Assembly: GCA_049700215.1 (NCBI GenBank)
Contig: JBNAVT010000018.1
Location: 1 to 44,076, forward strand
Reading direction: 5' to 3'
DNA: 44,076 nucleotides
Source of the DNA: Thermoproteota archaeon
GTDB lineage: Archaea > Thermoproteota > EX4484-205 > JAAOZP01
A model generated the notes under the pieces. That model made no database searches. It was given only the letters and a program-made list of their open reading frames with translations, and had not been told where the DNA came from. This document shows positions 5,925 through 16,106 of this stretch, in pieces. The number at the start of each line of letters is the position of its first letter. Within the stretch, counting starts at the first letter, position 1. A program made the translations under genes and the position numbers.

Positions 5925-6443
5925 ATGACCAGCCCGCCGGAGAAGCAGGAGTATTTCATGAGGGTGGAGGCCTATTTTCAGAAGCCAGGCGGATACTGGC
6001 CCCTGCTTGTCGAATCTCTTAAAAAAGTCTCCAGACACGTTTCAACAAGGCTCCGCACAGAGGTCTATGAGGATTTCAGCGTGACGCTTTTCCACGAGGA
6101 AGAGCTTGAGAAAACCATGCATGCTTCACTCCATTTCTCCGGTTTGAAAAACCCCCTTACTGCCGACAGGATTGTCGACAGTATTCTCGAGCTATGCGAG
6201 CATGTTGAGACATACCTTACCGTAAAGGGTGGTGTAGAGCAGTTCCAGGGGCTTGGTGAAAGCCTTTACGTGGAGGGGGTTGGAGTAAGGGTTTCAACCT
6301 ACCCTGAGAAGGGGGTTGTCACGTTTTCCTACAGGCTTTTCAAGCCGAACAGGGGTATTAACCTGGCTTCCAGGATCATCTCCAAAACAGCGGGAAGGAG
6401 CAGGGCTTTTTCAGAAAGACTTAGAAGCCTTCTGAGGCCCTAG
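5925..6443 (+). CDS. hypothetical protein upstream of crenactin
   Basis: 172-aa soluble ORF with genome-typical codon usage; no family recognised. Confidence 0.65.
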   Translation: MTSPPEKQEYFMRVEAYFQKPGGYWPLLVESLKKVSRHVSTRLRTEVYEDFSVTLFHEEELEKTMHASLHFSGLKNPLTADRIVDSILELCEHVETYLTVKGGVEQFQGLGESLYVEGVGVRVSTYPEKGVVTFSYRLFKPNRGINLASRIISKTAGRSRAFSERLRSLLRP

Positions 6444-6580
6444 CCCGCTTTCCCACGGCTTTTCGAAAGGTTTTAAGAGGCTTCGAGGCTTGTTGAAGAG
6501 CCGGGGGAGTTTTAAACGCTGAACCAGTAGCTTTTTTAAATGGTTTAAAGGAGAATTAGAAGGGAGAGTGTGAAGGAGGA

Positions 6581-7849
6581 TTGTCCGAAGCGTATAAGCG
6601 TTCACACGTGCTGGGAATGGATTATGGGACGAGCTTCTTCAAGTACGGCCCGATCTCACTCGGCGAGACGCCTGAGCTGACGGAGAACAGGGGCTACTTC
6701 CCGGATAAGGATGCGATAATGACTAGGATAATGGGCGAGGGCAGGGAGGTTGTGGTGGGCAGGGATATTCCGCTATACTTGGAGGCTAGGGAAGACCTGG
6801 CTTCAAGACTCGTCTACCCTTTTAGAAACGGCGTCATAGATAAGAATGACAGCAGGGCCTGGCAGGTTGTTGAAGAGGTTTCTCGAATGGCGCTTAGAGA
6901 GTTCACTCCGAAGGAGGAGGGGTTTAACGGTTTCTACGTTGTAGCCTCGCTTTCAGCAGTCGCGCCGAGATACATGTATGAGAAGCTGTTCGACATCTAC
7001 AGGAGGATAGACTCGGAGGAGCATACTGTCGCGGCGGCCACGATAATCCCGCAGCCCCTGGCGGTCGCGATCTCCCACAAGGTTCCTACTAGCGTCGTCG
7101 TCGAATCCGGGCATGGGAACACGCAGATAACCCCGATCTCTAGATACCCTGTTAGAACAGCCATCATCGCTCTCAACAGGGGTGGGGGGGACGCTAACTC
7201 GATAACGGCGGAGATATTGAAGGACAGTGGTTACGGCGACCTTGCTAAGGAGGAGACTGTCGTCAGACAGGTGAAGGAGCAGGTTGGCCTTGTGCCCAGG
7301 AGGCTGGAGGAGGCGATAAGGTTTGGGAGGGAGAACCCGGATAAGCTTGCCGCGGTGATAAACATACCTGGAACAAGGCTGAGGATAACGCTTGAGGATA
7401 ATGGTTGGCTCAGGTTCCTAATAGGCGAGTATGTTTTCAACCCTAACCATGAGGTTTTTCAAAGCTATTTCTCGAGAGGCATGCCTAGGCCTGGGGATGT
7501 TAAGGTCGGGGACACGTTTTTCCTAGGCATGCTCGACATGGCTGAGGCGATAGTGCAGTCGATCGAGAAATGCCCGGTTGAGCTTCAACCATACTTGTAC
7601 AGGCAGATTATACTTTCCGGCGGTAACTTTGAGTGGAGAGTCCCCCCGGGTCTTGAAACCACGTGTGTAAACTCTGTTGAAAAGATTAAGAGTATGCTGA
7701 GCGAGAAAGGGTTGTCTGAAACAGGAGTCGTGATGGCGAGCTCGCCGAAATACTCTGTCTGGAGGGGGTGCATAGTATACGGCTACGCTGTCCCAGAGGG
7801 CTTCAAGTGGAGCTGGGACAGGATGGAGGGATGGATGAGCTTCAGATGA
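6581..7849 (+). CDS. cren-1: crenactin (archaeal actin homolog)
   Basis: GMDYGTSFFKYGPI (phosphate 1), IIPQPLAVAI, VESGHGNTQITPIS (phosphate 2), LNRGG, ILSGGNFEWRVPPG and YSVWRG..YGY..EGW, collinear with Pyrobaculum crenactin as I recall it. Confidence 0.95.
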   Translation: MSEAYKRSHVLGMDYGTSFFKYGPISLGETPELTENRGYFPDKDAIMTRIMGEGREVVVGRDIPLYLEAREDLASRLVYPFRNGVIDKNDSRAWQVVEEVSRMALREFTPKEEGFNGFYVVASLSAVAPRYMYEKLFDIYRRIDSEEHTVAAATIIPQPLAVAISHKVPTSVVVESGHGNTQITPISRYPVRTAIIALNRGGGDANSITAEILKDSGYGDLAKEETVVRQVKEQVGLVPRRLEEAIRFGRENPDKLAAVINIPGTRLRITLEDNGWLRFLIGEYVFNPNHEVFQSYFSRGMPRPGDVKVGDTFFLGMLDMAEAIVQSIEKCPVELQPYLYRQIILSGGNFEWRVPPGLETTCVNSVEKIKSMLSEKGLSETGVVMASSPKYSVWRGCIVYGYAVPEGFKWSWDRMEGWMSFR

Positions 7850-8511
7850 GCCTCTCGAGAAGAATTATTCAGAGGGTTGAGAAATACTTCTCTAAACAGG
7901 GTTTCCAGGCTAAGGACTATGGTGAAGAGCATGGTGAAGTCGTTTTTTCAAACGGCAGTGAGGAGGCTTTGGTGAAAATACTCTTCGAGGAGGAGGCGGA
8001 CAAGCTTACTCTCTACGAGGCTCTGGCCTCAGTCCTTGAAAAATCCCAGGAGTACAGCATGGTTTACGTCGCCGCCCCCAGGAACCTGGGGGAGGACGTG
8101 GAGACAGCTTCCTTCATGAAGAAGGGTGTCGGGTTAATCCTGTATGACGACTACGGTGCTGAGGAGAGGATACCTGCTGAGAGCAGGCTTAGGAAGGCTG
8201 TGGCCAAGCGGGCTCAGCGGCCTGTTGAAACACAGTCTCTCGAGAAGAGCCTCTGGAGAATAGAGTCTATGATCAGGGAGCTTTCTGAGAGGGTTGACTC
8301 GCTTGAAAAAGCATACTTTTCACTTTTAAGAGAGGTGAGGGAGCTGAGGAAAGTTGCAGAGGGGAGAACGATGGTTGCGGAGGAGTCTGTTCGAAAAGCC
8401 TTCTCCAAGCGGGAGGAACAGGCTGAGACGGGAGGCCTCCCATCATTCTTAAGAGACAACCCCTGGGTAGAAATCCTGTCGAAAAGACCTGAGGAAAACA
8501 GTGGGCCCTAG
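7846..8511 (+). CDS. rkd-2: arcadin-2-like crenactin regulator
   Basis: ATG 7846 overlaps the crenactin TGA (ATGA). Central coiled coil; C-terminal FLRDNPWVEILSKR resembles the arcadin-2 actin-binding tail (ENEWVKILRSKR, recalled). Confidence 0.75.
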   Translation: MSLSRRIIQRVEKYFSKQGFQAKDYGEEHGEVVFSNGSEEALVKILFEEEADKLTLYEALASVLEKSQEYSMVYVAAPRNLGEDVETASFMKKGVGLILYDDYGAEERIPAESRLRKAVAKRAQRPVETQSLEKSLWRIESMIRELSERVDSLEKAYFSLLREVRELRKVAEGRTMVAEESVRKAFSKREEQAETGGLPSFLRDNPWVEILSKRPEENSGP

Positions 8512-8882
8512 GTTTTCCCAGCCTCGTGGAGAGCCTTTCTAAGAACCCTAAGCGGTAGGACTATGCACCTGTAGCGGGGGCTTTTAGAATCCGCGTTGAA
8601 GAATCTTAAGAGATCGTCTTCTTTAAACGTAAGCGCCTCTTCAACAGTCTTTCCCTTAACATGGTCTGTGAGAAGGGATGCTGAAGCGTTGCAGAACAAG
8701 CATGCTTCTGAAGTGAATTTCACGTCCACAATCTTCTTCCCCTCAAGCTTGAAAAACATTCTCAGCCTGTCTCCGCAGGAGTAGTCCGCCTCCTCTGAAA
8801 CAACGTCAGCGTTCTCAATCACACCGTAGTTAGCTGGTTCTCTGAAGCGTTTAAAAAGATCACGGGGATCCTGCGGGCCCAC
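8508..8882 (-). CDS. sufU: SufU/IscU-type Fe-S scaffold or sulfur-transfer protein
   Basis: SCGD, ACLFCNASAS and RYRCIVLP; directly downstream of sufS. Confidence 0.88.
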   Translation of the reverse strand: MGPQDPRDLFKRFREPANYGVIENADVVSEEADYSCGDRLRMFFKLEGKKIVDVKFTSEACLFCNASASLLTDHVKGKTVEEALTFKEDDLLRFFNADSKSPRYRCIVLPLRVLRKALHEAGKT

Positions 8883-8908: not shown

Positions 8909-10123
8909 CTAGATGAGAAGCCTCATCCTCCTCAGCGATTCGAGAAGCCTTTCCACCTCCTCCAGAGTATTGTAGAGGTAGAAGCTTACTCTGGCGACGG
9001 CGCTGGCTCCCAGAGCGTTCACAAGCGGCTCAGCACATAGGGCTCCAGACCTAATCATTATCCCATCTGCGTCGAGAAACTGGGCGACATCATGAGGATG
9101 AACACCCTTAACGTTGAAGCTTAAGAGGCCGGAATGCTTGCTGCTCTCCCTAGGCCCGTAGACCTCAACCATGCTCCAGTCAAGCCCCTCCAGAAGGTGC
9201 TTAACAAGCTTCAACTCGTGTTCAGCAATGTTCTCCATCCCTATCCTGCGCAAGTAGTCTACGGCGGCAGCCAGCCCGATGACACCTCCAACGTTCGGAG
9301 TCCCGGCTTCAAACCTGAAGGGAATATCCTCGTAAACCTGGGTTTCAGCGGTGACCGTCTTAACCATACCGCCTCCGAGGAGCAGCGGCTCAAACTCCTC
9401 CAGAATACTCCTCCTAACGTACAGCACGCCTATTCCTGTCGGCCCAAGCATCTTGTGGCCGCTGAAAGCCATAGCATCAGGGTCAACCTCCTTAACGTTG
9501 AAAGGCATATGCGGCACGCTCTGGGCAGCGTCCAGTATGAATAGGCTACCATGCTTGTGGGCTAGTCTTGAAAGCTCCTTAACCGGGTTGACTGTTCCAA
9601 GAACGTTTGAAACATGCAGGGTTGTAAGTATTTCACACCCTTCTTCAAGGCTTTCCTCAACCTTCTCCATGTCTATCGTGAAATCCCTGTTCATCCCAAC
9701 TATGATAAGCCTCCCACCCTTCTTGGCCACGATTCTCCTCCAGGGCAGGAGGTTGCTGTGATGCTCCATTATGCTGGTTACAACCACACGCCCCCTGCTG
9801 ATTCTCCCGGAGAAGGCTTCTGCAACCATGTTTAAGCCCTCGGTCGTGTTCCTGGTGAAAACTATCTCGTCCTCGCCGGCACCTATGAACCCGGCTATTT
9901 TACGCCTAGCCTCCATGTAGAGGTCAGTCGCCTGAGAGCTCAACGTGTTTACGCTGCGAAAAACATCAGAATTATAATTATAGTAGTAGTCTTTTATGGC
10001 CTCAACAACCTGAACCGGCTTCTGGGTTGTCGCCGCATTGTTGAAGTAAACAAGTCTTTTACCGTTTATAACCCTCTTCAGAATCGGAAAATCCTCCCTT
10101 ACAGCATACGGGTCCAGGGGCAT
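8909..10123 (-). CDS. sufS: SufS-type cysteine desulfurase
   Basis: YFNNAATTQKP, EHHSN, DAAQ, SGHKMLGPTG (PLP lysine) and RSGALCA (catalytic Cys). Confidence 0.93.
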   Translation of the reverse strand: MPLDPYAVREDFPILKRVINGKRLVYFNNAATTQKPVQVVEAIKDYYYNYNSDVFRSVNTLSSQATDLYMEARRKIAGFIGAGEDEIVFTRNTTEGLNMVAEAFSGRISRGRVVVTSIMEHHSNLLPWRRIVAKKGGRLIIVGMNRDFTIDMEKVEESLEEGCEILTTLHVSNVLGTVNPVKELSRLAHKHGSLFILDAAQSVPHMPFNVKEVDPDAMAFSGHKMLGPTGIGVLYVRRSILEEFEPLLLGGGMVKTVTAETQVYEDIPFRFEAGTPNVGGVIGLAAAVDYLRRIGMENIAEHELKLVKHLLEGLDWSMVEVYGPRESSKHSGLLSFNVKGVHPHDVAQFLDADGIMIRSGALCAEPLVNALGASAVARVSFYLYNTLEEVERLLESLRRMRLLI

Positions 10124-10210
10124 AAGCCGATTATAGCCCGGGGGGCTTTAAAGATGTTTCTTTCGAAAGCGAGAACTTTAAAAACCTTCTCTACTGTTAC
10201 AGGACAATAC

Positions 10211-11674
10211 TTGTTCGAGCCGAGCGAGCACGAGGAGAAGGTTAGAAGGATACTTCCCATACTCATAATAGTCTCGGTGGCTCTGCTCGGAGTAGTCATC
10301 GTCTACTTCCTGCTGACCAGGGTTCTCACCCCACCGGCGCCGGTTTACGACTTCAGGCTTGAGCTGAACAGCACCCGGGTTGAGGTTCTTCCGGGTAAGA
10401 TTGTGAACACGCTGATAACCCTCGTGCCCGAGGGAGCTTTCCAGGGGAGCGTAACCCTTAAGATTGAGAAGCCGGTGGACATTGATTACTCCGTCTCAAA
10501 CTGGGTTCTAACACCGTCTTCGAGAAACGCTGTTCTAACGCTGAACACGACAGGCCTACCACCGGGTTCATACCCGGTTAACGTCTCAGGCTCCTACCTG
10601 GAGGTTGAGAGGAAAACCAGGCTCACGATAATAGTCAAGGAGGTTGAGAAACCCTGGTTTGAAGCCAGCGTGAGCATTCAGCCTGGAAGCATCATGCAGA
10701 CTGAAACGTTCCTGCTGAACATTTCAATAACTCCACGCGCCGGCTTCAACGAGAGCATAAGTGTTTCGATCAGAGGCCTCGCGGGAGCGAGCCTCGAGGA
10801 AAACACTATAGAGAAGGGAGTGGTGAGAAAAACGGTAAGAGTTAAAACAAACAGGAGCATCCCCGTCGGAGTTAACAGTTTCACGGTGGTTTTAAACTCG
10901 ACGAGCCATGAGGCGCTTGCAAACCTGTCGATAACGGTTTCAGAGGCTCCTCCACCAGACTTCACAGTAAGCTTCCACCCGAACATTACGCTGGCTAAGC
11001 CGGGGGATGTTGTAAGCATCGCGGTAAGCGTTACGCCGCTCTACGGTTTCGACGAGACGGTGCACGTCTACTCGAGCCACATCGGGCTTAGTCTGAACGA
11101 GTTTAACGGCAGCGACTTCTTCATGACGCCGAGGAACTACAGCAGGGTGTTTGTGACTATGGAGATAGATGAGCGCTCCACGTTCGGGATAAATGTTTTA
11201 ACGTTCATTGTGGAAACCTCGTCTAGGAGGGAGATTAAAGGTGTTAAGCTGGGGGTTGCGAACGTTTCCTCAACCTTTAAGCAGCCTGCGCCAAGCATAG
11301 TAGCATACTTCGAGAGTTTCGACGCATCCCCCGGGGGGAAGACGACTATCGATTTCCTCGTTGGGTCTATAAACGGGTTTGAGGGGGAGGTTCTCCTCAG
11401 AGTCACAAAGTATAATTCGTCAGACCCGGATTTAGGCATGTTCTACTTTTCAACGGGAGAAGGGTTTCCGAAAATAGGGGTTAGCGTCGAGAGGGTGAAC
11501 ATAACCGCCGGGGAAGCTAGATTCGTATTCCTAAGCATAGAGCTGAAGGAAAGCATTGCCAGCGGGGTTTACAGGATCAACGTTGAGCTGTGCACAGAGC
11601 AAACCCCGCCGAACATGGCTTTCCCATTGTTGAAGCCGGTAAGCGTGTACACTATTGAGCTGCACGTCGACTAG
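10211..11674 (+). CDS. membrane-anchored surface glycoprotein with about four Ig-like beta-sandwich repeats
   Basis: One N-terminal TM helix, repeated DFxL/V...PxxGFxxxV units and 14 N-x-S/T sequons. Start TTG 10211 inferred from tttaaaaa at 10177. Confidence 0.75.
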   Translation: MFEPSEHEEKVRRILPILIIVSVALLGVVIVYFLLTRVLTPPAPVYDFRLELNSTRVEVLPGKIVNTLITLVPEGAFQGSVTLKIEKPVDIDYSVSNWVLTPSSRNAVLTLNTTGLPPGSYPVNVSGSYLEVERKTRLTIIVKEVEKPWFEASVSIQPGSIMQTETFLLNISITPRAGFNESISVSIRGLAGASLEENTIEKGVVRKTVRVKTNRSIPVGVNSFTVVLNSTSHEALANLSITVSEAPPPDFTVSFHPNITLAKPGDVVSIAVSVTPLYGFDETVHVYSSHIGLSLNEFNGSDFFMTPRNYSRVFVTMEIDERSTFGINVLTFIVETSSRREIKGVKLGVANVSSTFKQPAPSIVAYFESFDASPGGKTTIDFLVGSINGFEGEVLLRVTKYNSSDPDLGMFYFSTGEGFPKIGVSVERVNITAGEARFVFLSIELKESIASGVYRINVELCTEQTPPNMAFPLLKPVSVYTIELHVD

Positions 11675-11699
11675 GAGTCGGGCAGGCTCCCCGGCGGTT

Positions 11700-12542
11700 A
11701 TGAACCCGTTTCAAGCGTCTAACGAGAACCTGGTTAGGGAGACGATTAGCCTGATCAAGAAATACGGGGTACGGCCTAGGAAGAGGCTTAGCCAGAGCTT
11801 CGTCGTCGACAGGCTTCTGGTTAAAACAATCGTTGAAAACGTTCAGCCTAAGCCTAGTGACGTTATCGTCGAGATTGGAGCAGGGCTGGGAACACTGACT
11901 TTTGAACTGGCTAAGCATGGTTCAAAGGTTAAGGCTGTTGAAATCGACCCGGTGCTCGTAAGGGTTTTGAAAGACCGTTTCTCAAGTTTCCAAAACGTCG
12001 AGGTGGTTCAGGGCGACTTCACCAAGATGGATTTGAAAGGGAATGTTTACACTGGAAACATTCCCTACCATGTTTCAACCCCCGTGATTTTCAAGATTCT
12101 CGGGCAAAACTATGAGAAGGCTGTGATCACAGTGCAGAAGGAGGTTGCTGAAAGGATTGTTTCTAAGCCAGGTACCAGGGGCTACGGCAGGCTCACCGTC
12201 TCGGTTAACGCGATGGCTGAGCCGCGCGTACTAGGCTTCTTCCCATCCTCCTCATTCTACCCTAGGCCGAAGGTTGCCCACGCAGTCCTCTATATTAAGC
12301 CCTCCAGGAAGACTGTTGACAAGAATGTTCTGGAAAGCCTGCTTAGGGCAATGTTCAGCCAGAGAAACAGGCTGGCGAGAACAGTCTTGAAGAGGAGTCT
12401 TGAACAGCTGTACGGTGAAAAGGGCAGACGAGCCTACCCTAGTGTTTTCCAGCTTATTCCAGAGGCCGGCAGGGTTTTCGAGCTTACCGTCCAGGATTTT
12501 CTCAACCTCGCCCAGGCTGTTTCAAACAGTATTGGCGCTTAA
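11700..12542 (+). CDS. ksgA: 16S rRNA adenine dimethyltransferase (KsgA/Dim1)
   Basis: LSQSF, EIGAGLGTLT, VEID, GNIPY, QKEVAERI, YGRLTV and FYPRPKV. Confidence 0.95.
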   Translation: MNPFQASNENLVRETISLIKKYGVRPRKRLSQSFVVDRLLVKTIVENVQPKPSDVIVEIGAGLGTLTFELAKHGSKVKAVEIDPVLVRVLKDRFSSFQNVEVVQGDFTKMDLKGNVYTGNIPYHVSTPVIFKILGQNYEKAVITVQKEVAERIVSKPGTRGYGRLTVSVNAMAEPRVLGFFPSSSFYPRPKVAHAVLYIKPSRKTVDKNVLESLLRAMFSQRNRLARTVLKRSLEQLYGEKGRRAYPSVFQLIPEAGRVFELTVQDFLNLAQAVSNSIGA

Positions 12543-12569
12543 GTGCATAACGCGTAAGGATTCCTCGGA

Positions 12570-15500
12570 ATGCTGGTTTCGAAAACAGTTTGGAAAACCC
12601 TGCTGCTCGCCTCAACCATAGTCGCGCTCCGATGCCTCATCCTGGCGGAAGCCCAGCCGAGCAGCATACCGTCATCCTACTCTTGGAGCGGCTTAAGGAC
12701 GGACACGGTGCGAGTAAGCTACTCCTACAGCCAAAGAATATGGTACGGAGGAACAGGCTACCTTCAGATTAAGGCGAGCGGGCCGGGAGTATACAGTGAC
12801 ACTAAAACAACTACTGCAACAGTCACCGTGTCAGAGGGTGGTGAGGCGAGCATCTACGTCTGCGGCGACGACAGGAACCCTGTTCCAAACGGCTGGACTG
12901 TTCAGGAAAAACGTCTCACTGTTTACGTCGACGGCGTTAAGGTTTACGGGCTGGGGAAGGAATACTGGTGGGCGCACTGCTACTCTAAGGCTGCGACCCT
13001 TGGAGCGGGGACGCATAGGGTTGAGCTCACCATAAGCATTACTGTGAAAGTGGTTTCAAACGTTTACGAGGAGCTCTCCATAGCCTACGCAACCATGGAT
13101 ATTAAGGTTGAAGCCTCGGGGACGGTGCGGGCCGAGTCCCACAGGGCTCAAGCAGAGTTAAACGGGGAGGTGACTCACGTCTTCACCTTCAGGCTTCCGG
13201 AGGCTTCTGGCGTTGGGAGCGTTAACTGGAAAGCCGTTTGGAACAGTTTTGAGAAGACTGGCTGCGGCCCCCCGGGAAGCGTTCAGGAAGCGTTCTTCAC
13301 AGGAGTGAACAGGGACTCATGGGTTTTCGCAAGCCCGGTTGTGGTGGGGATGGGAGGCTCCACTCCCCGTGTTGAACCGGTTGAGGAATACTCGGTGGAC
13401 TCCGTCTACTCCGAGGGAGCTGGGGAGGTTGGGGTTCGCAGGATCGCCGTGGCCGTCAGCAACGGTGACGAGGTTGGGTTCACCCTCGGGAAGTACCTTG
13501 TGACGAGCATAGAGTACCTGGGTTTAAACATAAGCGGGTGCACTAGCGTGGAGGGCTTGGACGCGTGGGCCGACAGCAATTCTAATGTTCACTGGTCTCA
13601 GAAAATAAGGTTCTACAGCGCGGAAGGATGGGTTGTGGAGGAGGCTGCCGGCGGGGTTGAAACCGGGTTCTGCGTTTTGAAGGAGATCGGCGGGGGGACA
13701 GTCTCCAGGAGAGTCTCCTTCTCGTCTAGAAACAGGGTTGACGAGTTGACGCTGACGATCAATGTTCCCCAGCTGAGGCTGCGCTTCGACTCGATGACGA
13801 TTGAGCCCATTGGGCCGACCGACCTGGGTTTACGCATGCTTGGCGAGACTGTTGAGCTCAGGGTTAAGGCTTCCGACTGCCTCGGGGAGTACTCGAGAAT
13901 AGAAGTCTACAGGGTTTCAGAGTCGAGCCCTGGCGTCAGGAAATACTCTTTCAACCCGCCTACGGGAGTCTACCGGGGAATAACCTCGACCACTGGTGGA
14001 AACGTGACGTTTAAAGTCGCATGGTCATCCTACGAGCTCGAAGTCAAGAATGTCTCCGGCGGGGTTCTGAGGAGCGGTGTTTACTGGGCGAGGAGCGGCT
14101 CAAAGGCGAGGATCACTGTTTCAGCATGCTTTTCTCACGATAATAGTCCAGCGGCCGGCGTCAGGATAATGGACTCCAAGGGTGGCGAGGCTTTAACAGG
14201 GCTCAACGGTGAGGCAGAGTTCTCGTACACCGGGGAGGATTGTGAAGCTTGCTTGACCTACGTTATCGTAGACGGGGAGGGGAATAGGCTGAGCGGAGAG
14301 GCGTGTGTGAGAATAGTTTTCACTGGGATCAGGCTTGAAGTCTCCGGGGTAGACGCCTTCCTCTACGAAGGCTCCTACTATGCTTGCAACGACGCTTTCT
14401 CAAGCGTTTCAGTCAAGGCAGTCTACTCCCACAGCTTTAAACCGGTTGCCGGAGCCCTGGTGGAGTTTAAGCCCTCAGGATCCTCCGCCTCGACGGGGGT
14501 TGACGGCGCAGCGGTGCTGAGGCTGACCGGCAGGAACAGAGTTTACGAGGGCAAGATTGAGGCGAGCGACGGCTTCATTGTGGGGGAAGCAGGCTTCAGA
14601 ATATTTTTCACTGGAATACTGCTGGAAGCGTCCAGGACGCTGGTCAGCGGCAGGCCCGGGGAGGAGGTGGAGGTCACTGTCTCCGCGAGGCTCTCCCTCA
14701 ACAGCACGCCTTTAAACGGTCTTGAAGTAAGATGGGTTGAGACCGGGCTCTCCGGTGAAACCCCCGCGTCCTTCAGGCTGAGAATACCTGACAAGGGCTT
14801 TTCGAAAGCGTCCTTCGACGCCGTAGGGTTACTGCCCTGTGTTGAACCCTGCGTCGTAACCCTTGTCTCCAACAGCGTAGGGTTCAGCGGCCCGGAGAAC
14901 ACTGGGCCAGTGATAATCGTTAATAATATTCTTCTGGAAAACTATTCCTTCAGAATCATGCTGAACATAATGGACCTGCTTAACATAACGATACCCCGGG
15001 TGGCTTGGCGTAACAATGGGAGCGTTGCCCAAGGGGTTAGGATCGGGGTTGTGTCTTCTAACGGGACGGTGGTGAGGAGCAGCCTAGTCTCAAGCACGGG
15101 TGTAAGCTTCAACTGGACGGAGTCTAAGCCCGGCGTCTACCGTTACTTCGTGAGGACGCTTGAGGAAAATGTTTACAGCGACGTGCTCAGCATTGAGGCT
15201 GTTTTCACAGCCTTCAACATTACCGCGGACTACATACTGGATTTAAACGGGTCCAGGGTGTTCTGCGCCACGGCGCGCTGGGCTCACAACGGTTCTCCTG
15301 TAAGCAGCCTACCCGTCTACACGAGTCTCACGAGGAAGAGGACTCTGTCAGACGACGAGGGGAGGATAAGGCTGGCTTTAAACGACTACGAATACAATGC
15401 TTCATGCGTTGAGAGAATACTGGTTTTCAAAATGGACCCGCATTCCTCCGGAATATGGAGGACCGTCGGGGACTGCAGCATCAGGATTGTTAGGCTCGAC

Positions 15501-16106
15501 TGGGGGAGCCTGGCTTTAAGGGGAGACCAGTATGGCTTCGAAGCCCTTCTAAGCCTGGAGGCTGGCGACGGCTTAGTCAGCCTGCCTCTGAAGATCATGG
15601 TTGAAGGCTATCCTCCGGAAATATTTTCCTCAATAAGGGTTCTGAGAGTCCAGAGTGATAACTCGAGCATGACTGTTTTCCTAAACCCTTCCGGAGGATT
15701 CTCCTTCAGGGAGAGGCTTGCGCTGAGAATAGACTACGCTGAATACGATGGCAACAGGATAACGGTTAGGGTCAGGTCTCTCGCTGAAAAGCTGGTTGTC
15801 AGGAGCGTCAGGGTGAAGGCGGTGGATACTGGTGTTGAGAAGACGCTTGGAGACCTTCAACCAGGCTCCTGTCTAGAAGCCTCGCTGGAGCTGCCCCAGG
15901 CTGTCGGCGTGAACCCAGTAATAATCGTAGCATACTCTGAGAACACTGTTCCCCATGCTGTTAGGGTTTGGAGGAGGAACGGGCCAGACCTTTTCCCACT
16001 AATATCCGTGACACCGCTGCTGGCTGCTCTCGCCCTGAGGCTTAGGAACAGGGGTAGGAGCGCCGACGGTGGGAAACAGGGTTCTCGAGAGAAGCCTTCG
16101 TGTTAA
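12570..16106 (+). CDS. large exported beta-rich surface protein with tandem Ig-like repeats and C-terminal membrane anchor
   Basis: N-terminal signal peptide (ending AEA), five roughly 90-105 aa repeats, and a C-terminal hydrophobic stretch followed by RLRNRGR. Confidence 0.8.
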   Translation: MLVSKTVWKTLLLASTIVALRCLILAEAQPSSIPSSYSWSGLRTDTVRVSYSYSQRIWYGGTGYLQIKASGPGVYSDTKTTTATVTVSEGGEASIYVCGDDRNPVPNGWTVQEKRLTVYVDGVKVYGLGKEYWWAHCYSKAATLGAGTHRVELTISITVKVVSNVYEELSIAYATMDIKVEASGTVRAESHRAQAELNGEVTHVFTFRLPEASGVGSVNWKAVWNSFEKTGCGPPGSVQEAFFTGVNRDSWVFASPVVVGMGGSTPRVEPVEEYSVDSVYSEGAGEVGVRRIAVAVSNGDEVGFTLGKYLVTSIEYLGLNISGCTSVEGLDAWADSNSNVHWSQKIRFYSAEGWVVEEAAGGVETGFCVLKEIGGGTVSRRVSFSSRNRVDELTLTINVPQLRLRFDSMTIEPIGPTDLGLRMLGETVELRVKASDCLGEYSRIEVYRVSESSPGVRKYSFNPPTGVYRGITSTTGGNVTFKVAWSSYELEVKNVSGGVLRSGVYWARSGSKARITVSACFSHDNSPAAGVRIMDSKGGEALTGLNGEAEFSYTGEDCEACLTYVIVDGEGNRLSGEACVRIVFTGIRLEVSGVDAFLYEGSYYACNDAFSSVSVKAVYSHSFKPVAGALVEFKPSGSSASTGVDGAAVLRLTGRNRVYEGKIEASDGFIVGEAGFRIFFTGILLEASRTLVSGRPGEEVEVTVSARLSLNSTPLNGLEVRWVETGLSGETPASFRLRIPDKGFSKASFDAVGLLPCVEPCVVTLVSNSVGFSGPENTGPVIIVNNILLENYSFRIMLNIMDLLNITIPRVAWRNNGSVAQGVRIGVVSSNGTVVRSSLVSSTGVSFNWTESKPGVYRYFVRTLEENVYSDVLSIEAVFTAFNITADYILDLNGSRVFCATARWAHNGSPVSSLPVYTSLTRKRTLSDDEGRIRLALNDYEYNASCVERILVFKMDPHSSGIWRTVGDCSIRIVRLDWGSLALRGDQYGFEALLSLEAGDGLVSLPLKIMVEGYPPEIFSSIRVLRVQSDNSSMTVFLNPSGGFSFRERLALRIDYAEYDGNRITVRVRSLAEKLVVRSVRVKAVDTGVEKTLGDLQPGSCLEASLELPQAVGVNPVIIVAYSENTVPHAVRVWRRNGPDLFPLISVTPLLAALALRLRNRGRSADGGKQGSREKPSC

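Follow-up and report, generated by a model that had tools for sequence, protein, structure and literature searches.

Introduction

To our knowledge, crenactin is the best-studied relative of eukaryotic actin outside the Asgard archaea, and the whole of its biochemistry was obtained in a single genus, Pyrobaculum. In Pyrobaculum calidifontis the gene reportedly lies in the Arcade cluster, which in the 2011 account of Ettema et al. is said to consist of arcadin-1, crenactin, arcadin-2, arcadin-3 and arcadin-4. Here we describe a crenactin locus in a stretch of archaeal DNA of 44,076 nucleotides (contig JBNAVT010000018.1 of assembly GCA_049700215.1, contig C18 in our numbering; hereafter, the window). 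At positions 6581–8511 of the window, a crenactin gene runs into the gene for a divergent arcadin-2. We consider it highly probable that the locus forms the core of the actin cytoskeleton in a Candidatus Brockarchaeota archaeon, with crenactin as the polymer, arcadin-2 as its regulator, the product of an upstream gene, of a family that we call f3, as a likely further partner, and an arcadin-1-family protein encoded elsewhere in the genome.

The available passages of PMC5173319 (Izore et al. 2016) describe how arcadin-2 acts in P. calidifontis. Its C-terminal peptide (residues 187–203) occupies the hydrophobic groove of crenactin, and the full-length protein forms a 1:1 complex with crenactin (dissociation constant, Kd, 31 nM) and depolymerises the filaments. 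Mutants in which crenactin V339 or E340 is replaced by K do not polymerise. As to gene content, the available text of PMC9723716 states that, of these genes, the Caldarchaeales have only those for crenactin, arcadin-1 and arcadin-2, so that this set of three is already known. According to the same text, arcadin-4 is also present in marine Culexarchaeia, and terrestrial Culexarchaeia have arcadin-1 without crenactin.

Results

The window encodes a full-length crenactin

The first gene of the pair (6581–7849, plus strand) encodes 422 amino acids (aa) from a TTG start codon. Its product matched the Pfam Actin family (E = 2e-15) and aligned with P. calidifontis crenactin (PDB entries 4cj7, 5ly3 and 5mw1) over residues 2–419 against 5–428 (E = 1.4e-112), with 43% identity to the Pyrobaculum protein. 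The next PDB match, eukaryotic actin, followed at E = 1.4e-09. Among NCBIfam models, NF053560 scored 566.5 bits (E = 3.4e-170), and the next family was MamK (E = 1.9e-11). In an alignment of 66 crenactins, the phosphate-1, phosphate-2 and adenosine motifs were all invariant, the invariant columns being D14, G16, T17 and K21; Q158; E175, G177, H178, G179, N180 and Q182; S346, G347 and G348; and E334. As counted by hand on the 4cj7 alignment, Q158 corresponds to Q164, and V333 and E334 to V339 and E340, of the P. calidifontis protein. As in Arcade, crenactin retains the catalytic glutamine and the residues for polymer contacts. Neither gene of the pair contained an internal stop, and the crenactin open reading frame (ORF) was the sole Actin-family match in its genome. 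The full-length crenactin with intact nucleotide-binding motifs, proposed in an initial annotation made from the letters of the window, was borne out by 4cj7, NF053560 and the 66-sequence alignment.

Some public gene calls begin crenactin at the ATG at codon 13, giving a protein of 410 aa. The TTG start appears to fit better, since the residues upstream of M13 (2–12) were conserved in the alignment, with Y5 present in 90% or more of the rows.

The overlapping second gene encodes a divergent arcadin-2

The two coding sequences overlap at 7846–7849, within AGATGAGC, where the arcadin-2 start (ATG, 7846–7848) interlocks with the crenactin stop (TGA, 7847–7849), as had been read from the sequence initially. 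This 4-nt overlap (gap −4) was retained in the more distant members of the genus (L018–L023; L, G and C denote our numbering of loci, genomes and contigs), in which no earlier in-frame arcadin-2 start was present.

The second gene (7846–8511, plus strand; 221 aa) had no Pfam family. It was matched by the NCBIfam arcadin-2 model Rkd2 (NF053561; E = 2e-9) over residues 13–214 against positions 10–195 of 196, and was the single Rkd2 match in the genome. Judged from sequence, the protein is a true but divergent arcadin-2, a distant member of the family. Its residues 198–215 (LPSFLRDNPWVEILSKRP; codons at 8437–8490, plus strand) aligned with the C-terminal stretch of Pyrobaculum arcadin-2, and P199, N205, W207 and L211 were invariant in all 69 arcadin-2-family proteins found beside crenactin genes. 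The putative docking motif, LPSF..DNPW..LS.R, is longer and more uniform here than that of Pyrobaculum arcadin-2. The arcadin-2-like nature of the second gene, as first annotated, was thus upheld by the Rkd2 match, by BLASTP against Pyrobaculum arcadin-2 (E = 3e-8) and by the motif.

An AlphaFold2 model of the protein (mean predicted local distance difference test score, pLDDT, 79.9) showed a confident N-terminal domain (residues 1–110), a long helix (128–177), a linker with pLDDT below 50 (176–196) and short terminal helices (200–212). This arrangement of core, linker and end helix agrees with the outline of P. calidifontis arcadin-2 given in the available passages of PMC5173319. The modelled N-domain resembled restriction-endonuclease-like folds, namely those of XisH, SPO1766, tRNA splicing endonuclease, AF2093, Bax1 and PaqCI (E down to 1.2e-4; template modelling (TM) score normalised to target, 0.53–0.60). 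Conserved N-domain residues were G19, Y74, P78, G94, G96, L97, D101 and E107. Nuclease catalysis was considered and rejected, the D...ExK triad not being conserved in the N-domain columns. The word 'nuclease' is absent from the P. calidifontis arcadin-2 paper (PMC5173319).

Arcadin-2 is predicted to dock in the crenactin groove

The complex of crenactin with arcadin-2 residues 160–221 was predicted in three runs, alongside three controls. The interaction prediction score from aligned errors (ipSAE) was 0.89 as the median of three runs, against 0.01 for the best of the three controls, although this score may be recall of the solved structure 5LY3 and would then express likeness rather than independent evidence of binding. 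In calibration, 58 of 80 solved complexes attained the ipSAE mark, as did 2 of 110 mismatched pairs. At least 62% of contacts were common to the runs, and the partner pLDDT was at least 53. The predicted interface joins arcadin-2 residues 199–218 to crenactin residues 25, 28–29, 163–169, 188 and 395–417. It would sit in the region matching the groove, between the actin fold's two halves, that, in the available passages of PMC5173319, is filled by a short helix of the partner in ParM–ParR of plasmid R1 and in actin–thymosin beta4/WH2. Those systems show no sequence relationship to crenactin and arcadin-2.

Arcadin-2 accompanies crenactin in several archaeal lineages

The initial annotation had taken the pair for a reduced two-gene system. 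To compare it with other lineages, ORFs were called in 75 crenactin loci, namely 73 of 74 retrieved loci (L086 had no callable crenactin ORF) together with L087 and L088, the last duplicating L066, and neighbours within 5 kb of crenactin were clustered into families. The arcadin-2 family occurred within this distance in 71 of the 75 loci, spanning Bathyarchaeia, Caldarchaeales, Culexarchaeia, Brockarchaeota and Thermoprotei. It was the immediate same-strand neighbour of crenactin in 69, downstream in 61 and upstream in eight. Among the four loci without it, L054 and L064 stop no more than about 460 nt past crenactin. The arcadin-2 gene of the window lies immediately 3′ of crenactin on the same strand, as in Arcade, whereas the eight loci with arcadin-2 directly upstream were of Caldarchaeales type (L037, L038, L040, L043, L051, L062, L066 and L088). 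Since arcadin-2 stands near crenactin in 71 of 75 loci, the pair is not a lineage-specific reduction; crenactin and arcadin-2 are the common core of crenactin systems. The identity of the two genes stood, and a reduction special to this lineage did not. Nor is the system strictly one of two genes, given the arcadin-1-family gene and the upstream f3 gene described below.

Arcadin-4 adjoined crenactin in six Thermoprotei-type loci only (L047, L068, L070, L072, L074 and L087). The Pyrobaculum-type locus L087 carried arcadin-1 (5ly5, E = 3.5e-61), crenactin, and matches to Rkd2 (307.8 bits), Rkd3 (112.4 bits) and Rkd4 (1069.8 bits).

Several other arrangements were noted in this set. A 74–78-aa SHOCT-domain protein, not arcadin-1, preceded crenactin in five Thermofilaceae/Thermoprotei-type loci (L047, L068, L070, L072 and L073; PF09851 E = 2.4e-7 in L070), and in L072 arcadin-1 lay about 3 kb off on the opposite strand. 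A 100-aa ORF was called between arcadin-2 and crenactin in L042. In 25 loci, mostly of Bathyarchaeia type (e.g. L033:11855–12166), a family of about 96 aa (f2) lay 3′ of arcadin-2 on the same strand; its consensus, ...CPED..P.L.SEC..C.RF.RR..., contains invariant Cys, Arg and Pro columns and had no Pfam or NCBIfam match. A search of the window's genome for f2, run without a positive control, gave no match.

A gene of the arcadin-1 family lies on another contig

In agreement with the initial annotation, no arcadin-1, arcadin-3 or arcadin-4 was recognised within the window. The search was extended to the whole genome, a 2.09-Mb metagenome-assembled genome (MAG) of 85 contigs that is 94.6% complete, as one of 41 genomes, of which 17 belonged to the genus (70–95% complete) and nine others to the order, with Pyrobaculum (G035) as control. 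Pyrobaculum arcadin-1 as a single query found nothing in the window's genome. The Pfam profile Arcadin_1 (PF18653) later identified a 110-aa gene on contig C3 (C3:90179–90466, minus strand; 27.6 bits against a cut-off of 25, E = 4.4e-6), so that single-sequence negatives mean little here. The protein was closest to a Caldarchaeum-type member (32% identity), and the family exceeded the Pfam cut-off in all 17 genomes of the genus and was matched in 30 of 41 overall. The complement of crenactin, arcadin-1 and arcadin-2 is the same as that described for the Caldarchaeales in the available text of PMC9723716. It differs from Arcade in that the arcadin-1-family gene lies on another contig, rather than directly upstream of crenactin.

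Neither arcadin-3 nor arcadin-4 was found, a further difference from Arcade. For arcadin-4 (Rkd4, NF053563), the best score in the window's genome was 36.5 bits against a cut-off of 860. These were weak head-domain matches, which fell on a Rad50-like gene adjoining Mre11 and on SMC. No genome of the genus (0/17) or among the nine others of the order exceeded the cut-off; the only one of the 41 to do so was the Pyrobaculum control, at 1069.8 bits. For arcadin-3 (Rkd3, NF053562), the best match in the window's genome had E = 0.297, and at E ≤ 0.01 none of the 17 genus genomes and only the control among the 41 was matched (E = 9.4e-31), though a protein of 56 aa may escape detection. The genome-wide search thus recovered one of the three missing arcadins.

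These results bear on a more routine explanation, in which all four arcadins are present and merely scattered over the genome, so that nothing has been reduced. The Arcadin_1 gene does lie on C3, far from the crenactin contig, the assembly is incomplete, and an arcadin-3 of such small size could have diverged past detection. Against this stand the absence of any Rkd4 score over the cut-off in genus and order, where the best matches were Rad50/SMC proteins, the lack of an Rkd3 match in 40 of 41 genomes, and the restriction of crenactin-adjacent arcadin-4 to six Thermoprotei-type loci of 75. We regard a scattered Arcade as very improbable.

The Arcadin_1 gene also has a neighbour of its own. It meets convergently, with a 4-nt overlap, a gene for a 150-aa CdvA-like coiled-coil protein (PF18822, E = 2.3e-12, over the cut-off), the two genes together spanning C3:89685–90466. 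This pairing might tie actin to the Cdv system. By tblastn, the CdvA-like neighbour was not found in the 3-kb arcadin-1 loci L103–L108 of five other lineages. CdvB (Snf7, PF03357) had no match in the window's genome, in a search whose Sulfolobus control was itself only weak, and a 399-aa ORF with a Vps4_C domain was present.

The f3 family is found in front of crenactin

The position 5′ of crenactin, occupied in Arcade by arcadin-1, is taken here by an unrelated gene (5925–6443, plus strand) for a 172-aa protein that matched no Pfam or NCBIfam family and whose named relatives are all 'hypothetical protein'. Members of this family, f3, lay directly 5′ of crenactin on the same strand in 13 of 13 Brockarchaeota-type loci and in 10 others, including Bathyarchaeia and Culexmicrobium. 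The Brockarchaeota group was related by hhalign to the other members (probability 96.2%, E = 2.2e-9, 159 columns) and to the L028–L031 group (91.6%, E = 8.4e-7). A 40-member profile matched in 18 of 41 genomes, in all 18 directly in front of crenactin, and gave no match in any of the 17 genomes where crenactin itself was unmatched. Among 1.84 billion representative proteins, only 40 were found at E ≤ 0.001. This synteny suggests that the f3 protein may be a further partner of crenactin.

Models gave few hints as to function. The AlphaFold2 model of f3 was of good quality (pLDDT 87.9, predicted TM score 0.82), and a Foldseek search of the PDB returned no close fold (best TM 0.51); no usable match was found in the ESM Atlas. 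No function was drawn from the weak two-layer alpha/beta matches (AdoMetDC, tandem KH, TBP and ACT pairs), all at TM ≤ 0.51. An identity with arcadin-1 was likewise rejected: there was no BLASTP alignment and no Pfam match, the hhalign probability was 0.2%, and 5ly5 was not among the Foldseek matches listed. Long members of the family end in a ribbon-helix-helix (RHH)-like segment (L027:9310–10008, L033:9276–10004 and L035:9279–10004), as judged from PF01402 in L027 (E = 0.0023) and ORF56 in L033 (E = 2.7e-4), both below cut-offs, and from sequence likeness in L035. Brockarchaeota members have a basic C-terminal helix, without the RHH.

In the window, f3 and crenactin are separated by a spacer of 137 nt (6444–6580, plus strand), which contains A/T-rich boxes (TTTTAAA at 6510–6516 and TTTTTTAAAT at 6532–6541) and GGAGG at 6575–6579. 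A TATA-like element in this spacer would give crenactin its own promoter. This arrangement is relevant to a strictly minimal system, in which crenactin and arcadin-2 act alone and f3 and the distant arcadin-1 are unrelated to them. In its favour, the gene overlap is confined to crenactin and arcadin-2, the pair is the sole element common to nearly all loci, f3 is set off by a spacer with a possible promoter, and Arcadin_1 is found in six genomes without a crenactin match. P. calidifontis arcadin-1, moreover, bound crenactin only moderately in vitro (Kd 15 uM) and left polymerisation unaffected, according to the available passages of PMC5173319. The f3 data argue otherwise: all 18 profile matches lie directly 5′ of crenactin, none occurs in a genome lacking a crenactin match, and in other lineages f3 abuts or overlaps the crenactin start (in L033, f3 spans 9276–10004 and crenactin begins at 10001). 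Arcadin_1, too, is kept in every genome of the genus. We therefore hold a system of only two genes to be unlikely, if by no means far-fetched.

The RHH segments raise another alternative, a DNA-moving machine like ParMRC, in which the C-terminal helix of arcadin-2 would attach DNA as cargo to the ends of filaments and f3 would supply or regulate DNA binding. On crenactin the arcadin-2 helix takes up the groove, and the orientation, that ParR takes up on ParM, according to a figure legend in PMC5173319; the predicted arcadin-2 N-domain is restriction-endonuclease-like in fold (as in XisH, tRNA splicing endonuclease, Bax1 and PaqCI); and three f3 members carry the C-terminal RHH, albeit below cut-offs. 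ParR, however, works as an adaptor that binds DNA, whereas arcadin-2 is portrayed as a factor that sequesters and depolymerises; the published biochemistry in the available passages of PMC5173319 is bulk depolymerisation and 1:1 sequestration, with no filament capping. No repeat or centromere-like site was noticed, though no search was directed at one. Neither the D...ExK triad nor another obvious nucleic-acid-binding signature is conserved in the arcadin-2 N-domain, Brockarchaeota f3 lacks the RHH, and where present the RHH could be a mere operon autoregulator. Such a machine seems to us distinctly doubtful.

The locus belongs to Candidatus Brockarchaeota

The window's genome is a Candidatus Brockarchaeota MAG, from an uncultured archaeon of a hot spring. 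Loci whose crenactins are 88–99% identical to that of the window are labelled Candidatus Brockarchaeota (L016, L019, L020 and L032), and others Thermoproteota, Nitrososphaerota or Thaumarchaeota archaeon. A maximum-likelihood tree was built from the 66 crenactin rows by quick search, with Shimodaira–Hasegawa-like approximate likelihood ratio test (SH-aLRT) support only; it is unrooted, with midpoint rooting for drawing. The window's crenactin fell within a 14-row Brockarchaeota clade (SH-aLRT 100), nested in a 28-row group with Caldarchaeales-type rows (SH-aLRT 92). On one side of a branch with support of 100 lay 58 non-Thermoprotei rows, and on the other the Thermoprotei rows. Compared with all other rows, that of Pyrobaculum had a very long branch (2.95), and its placement is unsure.

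In the tree the protein did not nest in the Thermoproteales. The initial annotation had named a routine split Arcade, with the other arcadins elsewhere in the genome and the protein nested in an already characterised Thermoproteales clade, as what would overturn it; one other arcadin was indeed located elsewhere, and no such nesting was seen. Its suggestion of a lineage with an uncharacterised actin held: no actin was described for Brockarchaeota in the searched literature, a search that did not extend to supplementary tables, and the lone paper containing both crenactin and Brockarchaeota as words referred to Brockarchaeota in other contexts.

The gene order around the locus was also conserved. 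Arcadin-2 meets tail to tail, with overlapping stop codons, a convergent gene (8508–8882, minus strand) for a NifU_N/SufU-type iron–sulphur scaffold (Pfam E = 9e-20; TIGR01994 E = 2.5e-17, under the cut-off), consistent with the head-on meeting with sufU noted initially. This gene marks the edge of the unit without belonging to it, and is preceded by sufS (8909–10123; score over the family cut-off). The order f3–crenactin–arcadin-2–sufU–sufS was repeated in 13 of 13 Brockarchaeota-type loci from different assemblies. A genus-wide conserved stretch lies 3′ of arcadin-2 (window 8909–16106, with equivalents in L013–L023, L032 and L076), made up of sufU, sufS, a 506-aa protein (10154–11674), a 295-aa protein and a 1178-aa protein (12570–16106).

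An artefact, in which the two genes are mis-binned or decaying and play no working part in the organism, has to be considered for any MAG, and some public crenactin contigs do carry bacterial labels (L050, L055 and L081). The constant gene order in 13 loci, the matching of crenactin in 15 of the genus's 17 genomes (the remaining two being 70% and 80% complete), the lack of internal stops and the invariant active-site columns all oppose it, and we find it scarcely credible.

The bacterially labelled contigs (Acidiferrales, Acidoferrum and Methylomirabilota, respectively) fell in the Bathyarchaeia part of the tree and are probably mis-binned archaeal contigs. Crenactin was broken into two or three ORFs in L078, L079, L080, L082 and L084 (MFD isolates), and in L075 neighbouring genes were also split. 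The split crenactin ORFs of the MFD loci have the look of assembly errors of the frameshift type and not of decay.

The genus has no FtsZ/tubulin match

No match to FtsZ/tubulin (PF00091) was found in the 17 genomes of the genus (70–95% complete) or in six of six genomes of one sister family; the family was matched in two other families of the same order. The genus looks FtsZ-less, like the Thermoproteales. In this it differs from the Caldarchaeales, which have FtsZ2 according to the available text of PMC9723716.

Discussion

The locus is best described as the core actin module of a Candidatus Brockarchaeota archaeon. The analysis itself establishes which genes these are, their synteny, the conserved motif and a predicted interface. 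By homology, crenactin would form an ATP-dependent, F-actin-like polymer, and the ATGA overlap would probably couple its synthesis to that of arcadin-2. Arcadin-2 would consist of a folded N-domain, restriction-endonuclease-like without the catalytic triad, a long helix with a floppy linker, and a near-invariant C-terminal helix. The last would plug the crenactin groove, the site for the D-loop of the next subunit, and so hold monomers back or dismantle filaments. Arcadin-3 and arcadin-4, seen beside Thermoprotei-type crenactins only, would be additions to this core. A role for f3 in the module is likewise inferred by homology.

Several observations weigh against this description. The crenactin score of 566.5 bits is below the NF053560 equivalog cut-off of 630, which is a curator's naming threshold and no biological feature. 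Arcadin-2 is more divergent still: its Rkd2 score of 37.4 bits is far below the equivalog cut-off of 290, it is merely 27% identical to Pyrobaculum arcadin-2 over its full length (BLASTP, E = 3e-8), and by sequence it gave only chance-level matches in the PDB, in a library of chains of at least 20 residues for which the solved arcadin-2 peptide may be too short. The possible recall of 5LY3 in the docking score adds to these points. The tie of the Arcadin_1 gene to the module is weak, because the match is marginal, unlinked to crenactin, and also present in the six genomes without a crenactin match (G018, G020, G027, G033, G037 and G040). The last finding agrees with arcadin-1 in terrestrial Culexarchaeia, as reported in the available text of PMC9723716. 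Because of the 137-nt spacer with its A/T-rich boxes, f3 and crenactin may not share a transcript. Finally, in a genome 94.6% complete, 'not found' differs from 'absent', and the unrooted tree is compatible both with a gain of arcadin-3 and arcadin-4 in Thermoprotei and with their loss elsewhere.

These findings overturn no current view. Across the 75 loci, the actin and arcadin-2 pair, with its docking motif, is the conserved heart of the system, and the five-gene Arcade is the exception. The naming of both proteins in databases probably reflects curated models tuned to the Thermoproteales. JGI/IMG names some members of the protein cluster crenactin, whereas in NCBI records the cluster's crenactins, probably owing to the very long Pyrobaculum branch, and all arcadin-2 members are 'hypothetical protein'. 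The near-invariant LPSF..DNPW..LS.R offers a simple marker for arcadin-2.

As a small family always beside crenactin, f3 is an obvious candidate crenactin binder. A bolder proposal, which we rate as a long shot, is that f3 is a new dedicated actin component and that its RHH fusions, together with the arcadin-2 N-domain, link crenactin filaments to DNA in a role in chromosome segregation or positioning. If true, the module would be ParMRC-like in FtsZ-less archaea such as this genus, with a function beyond cell shape alone. More generally, since the genus has no FtsZ/tubulin match, its actin may matter for cell division or for the handling of DNA.

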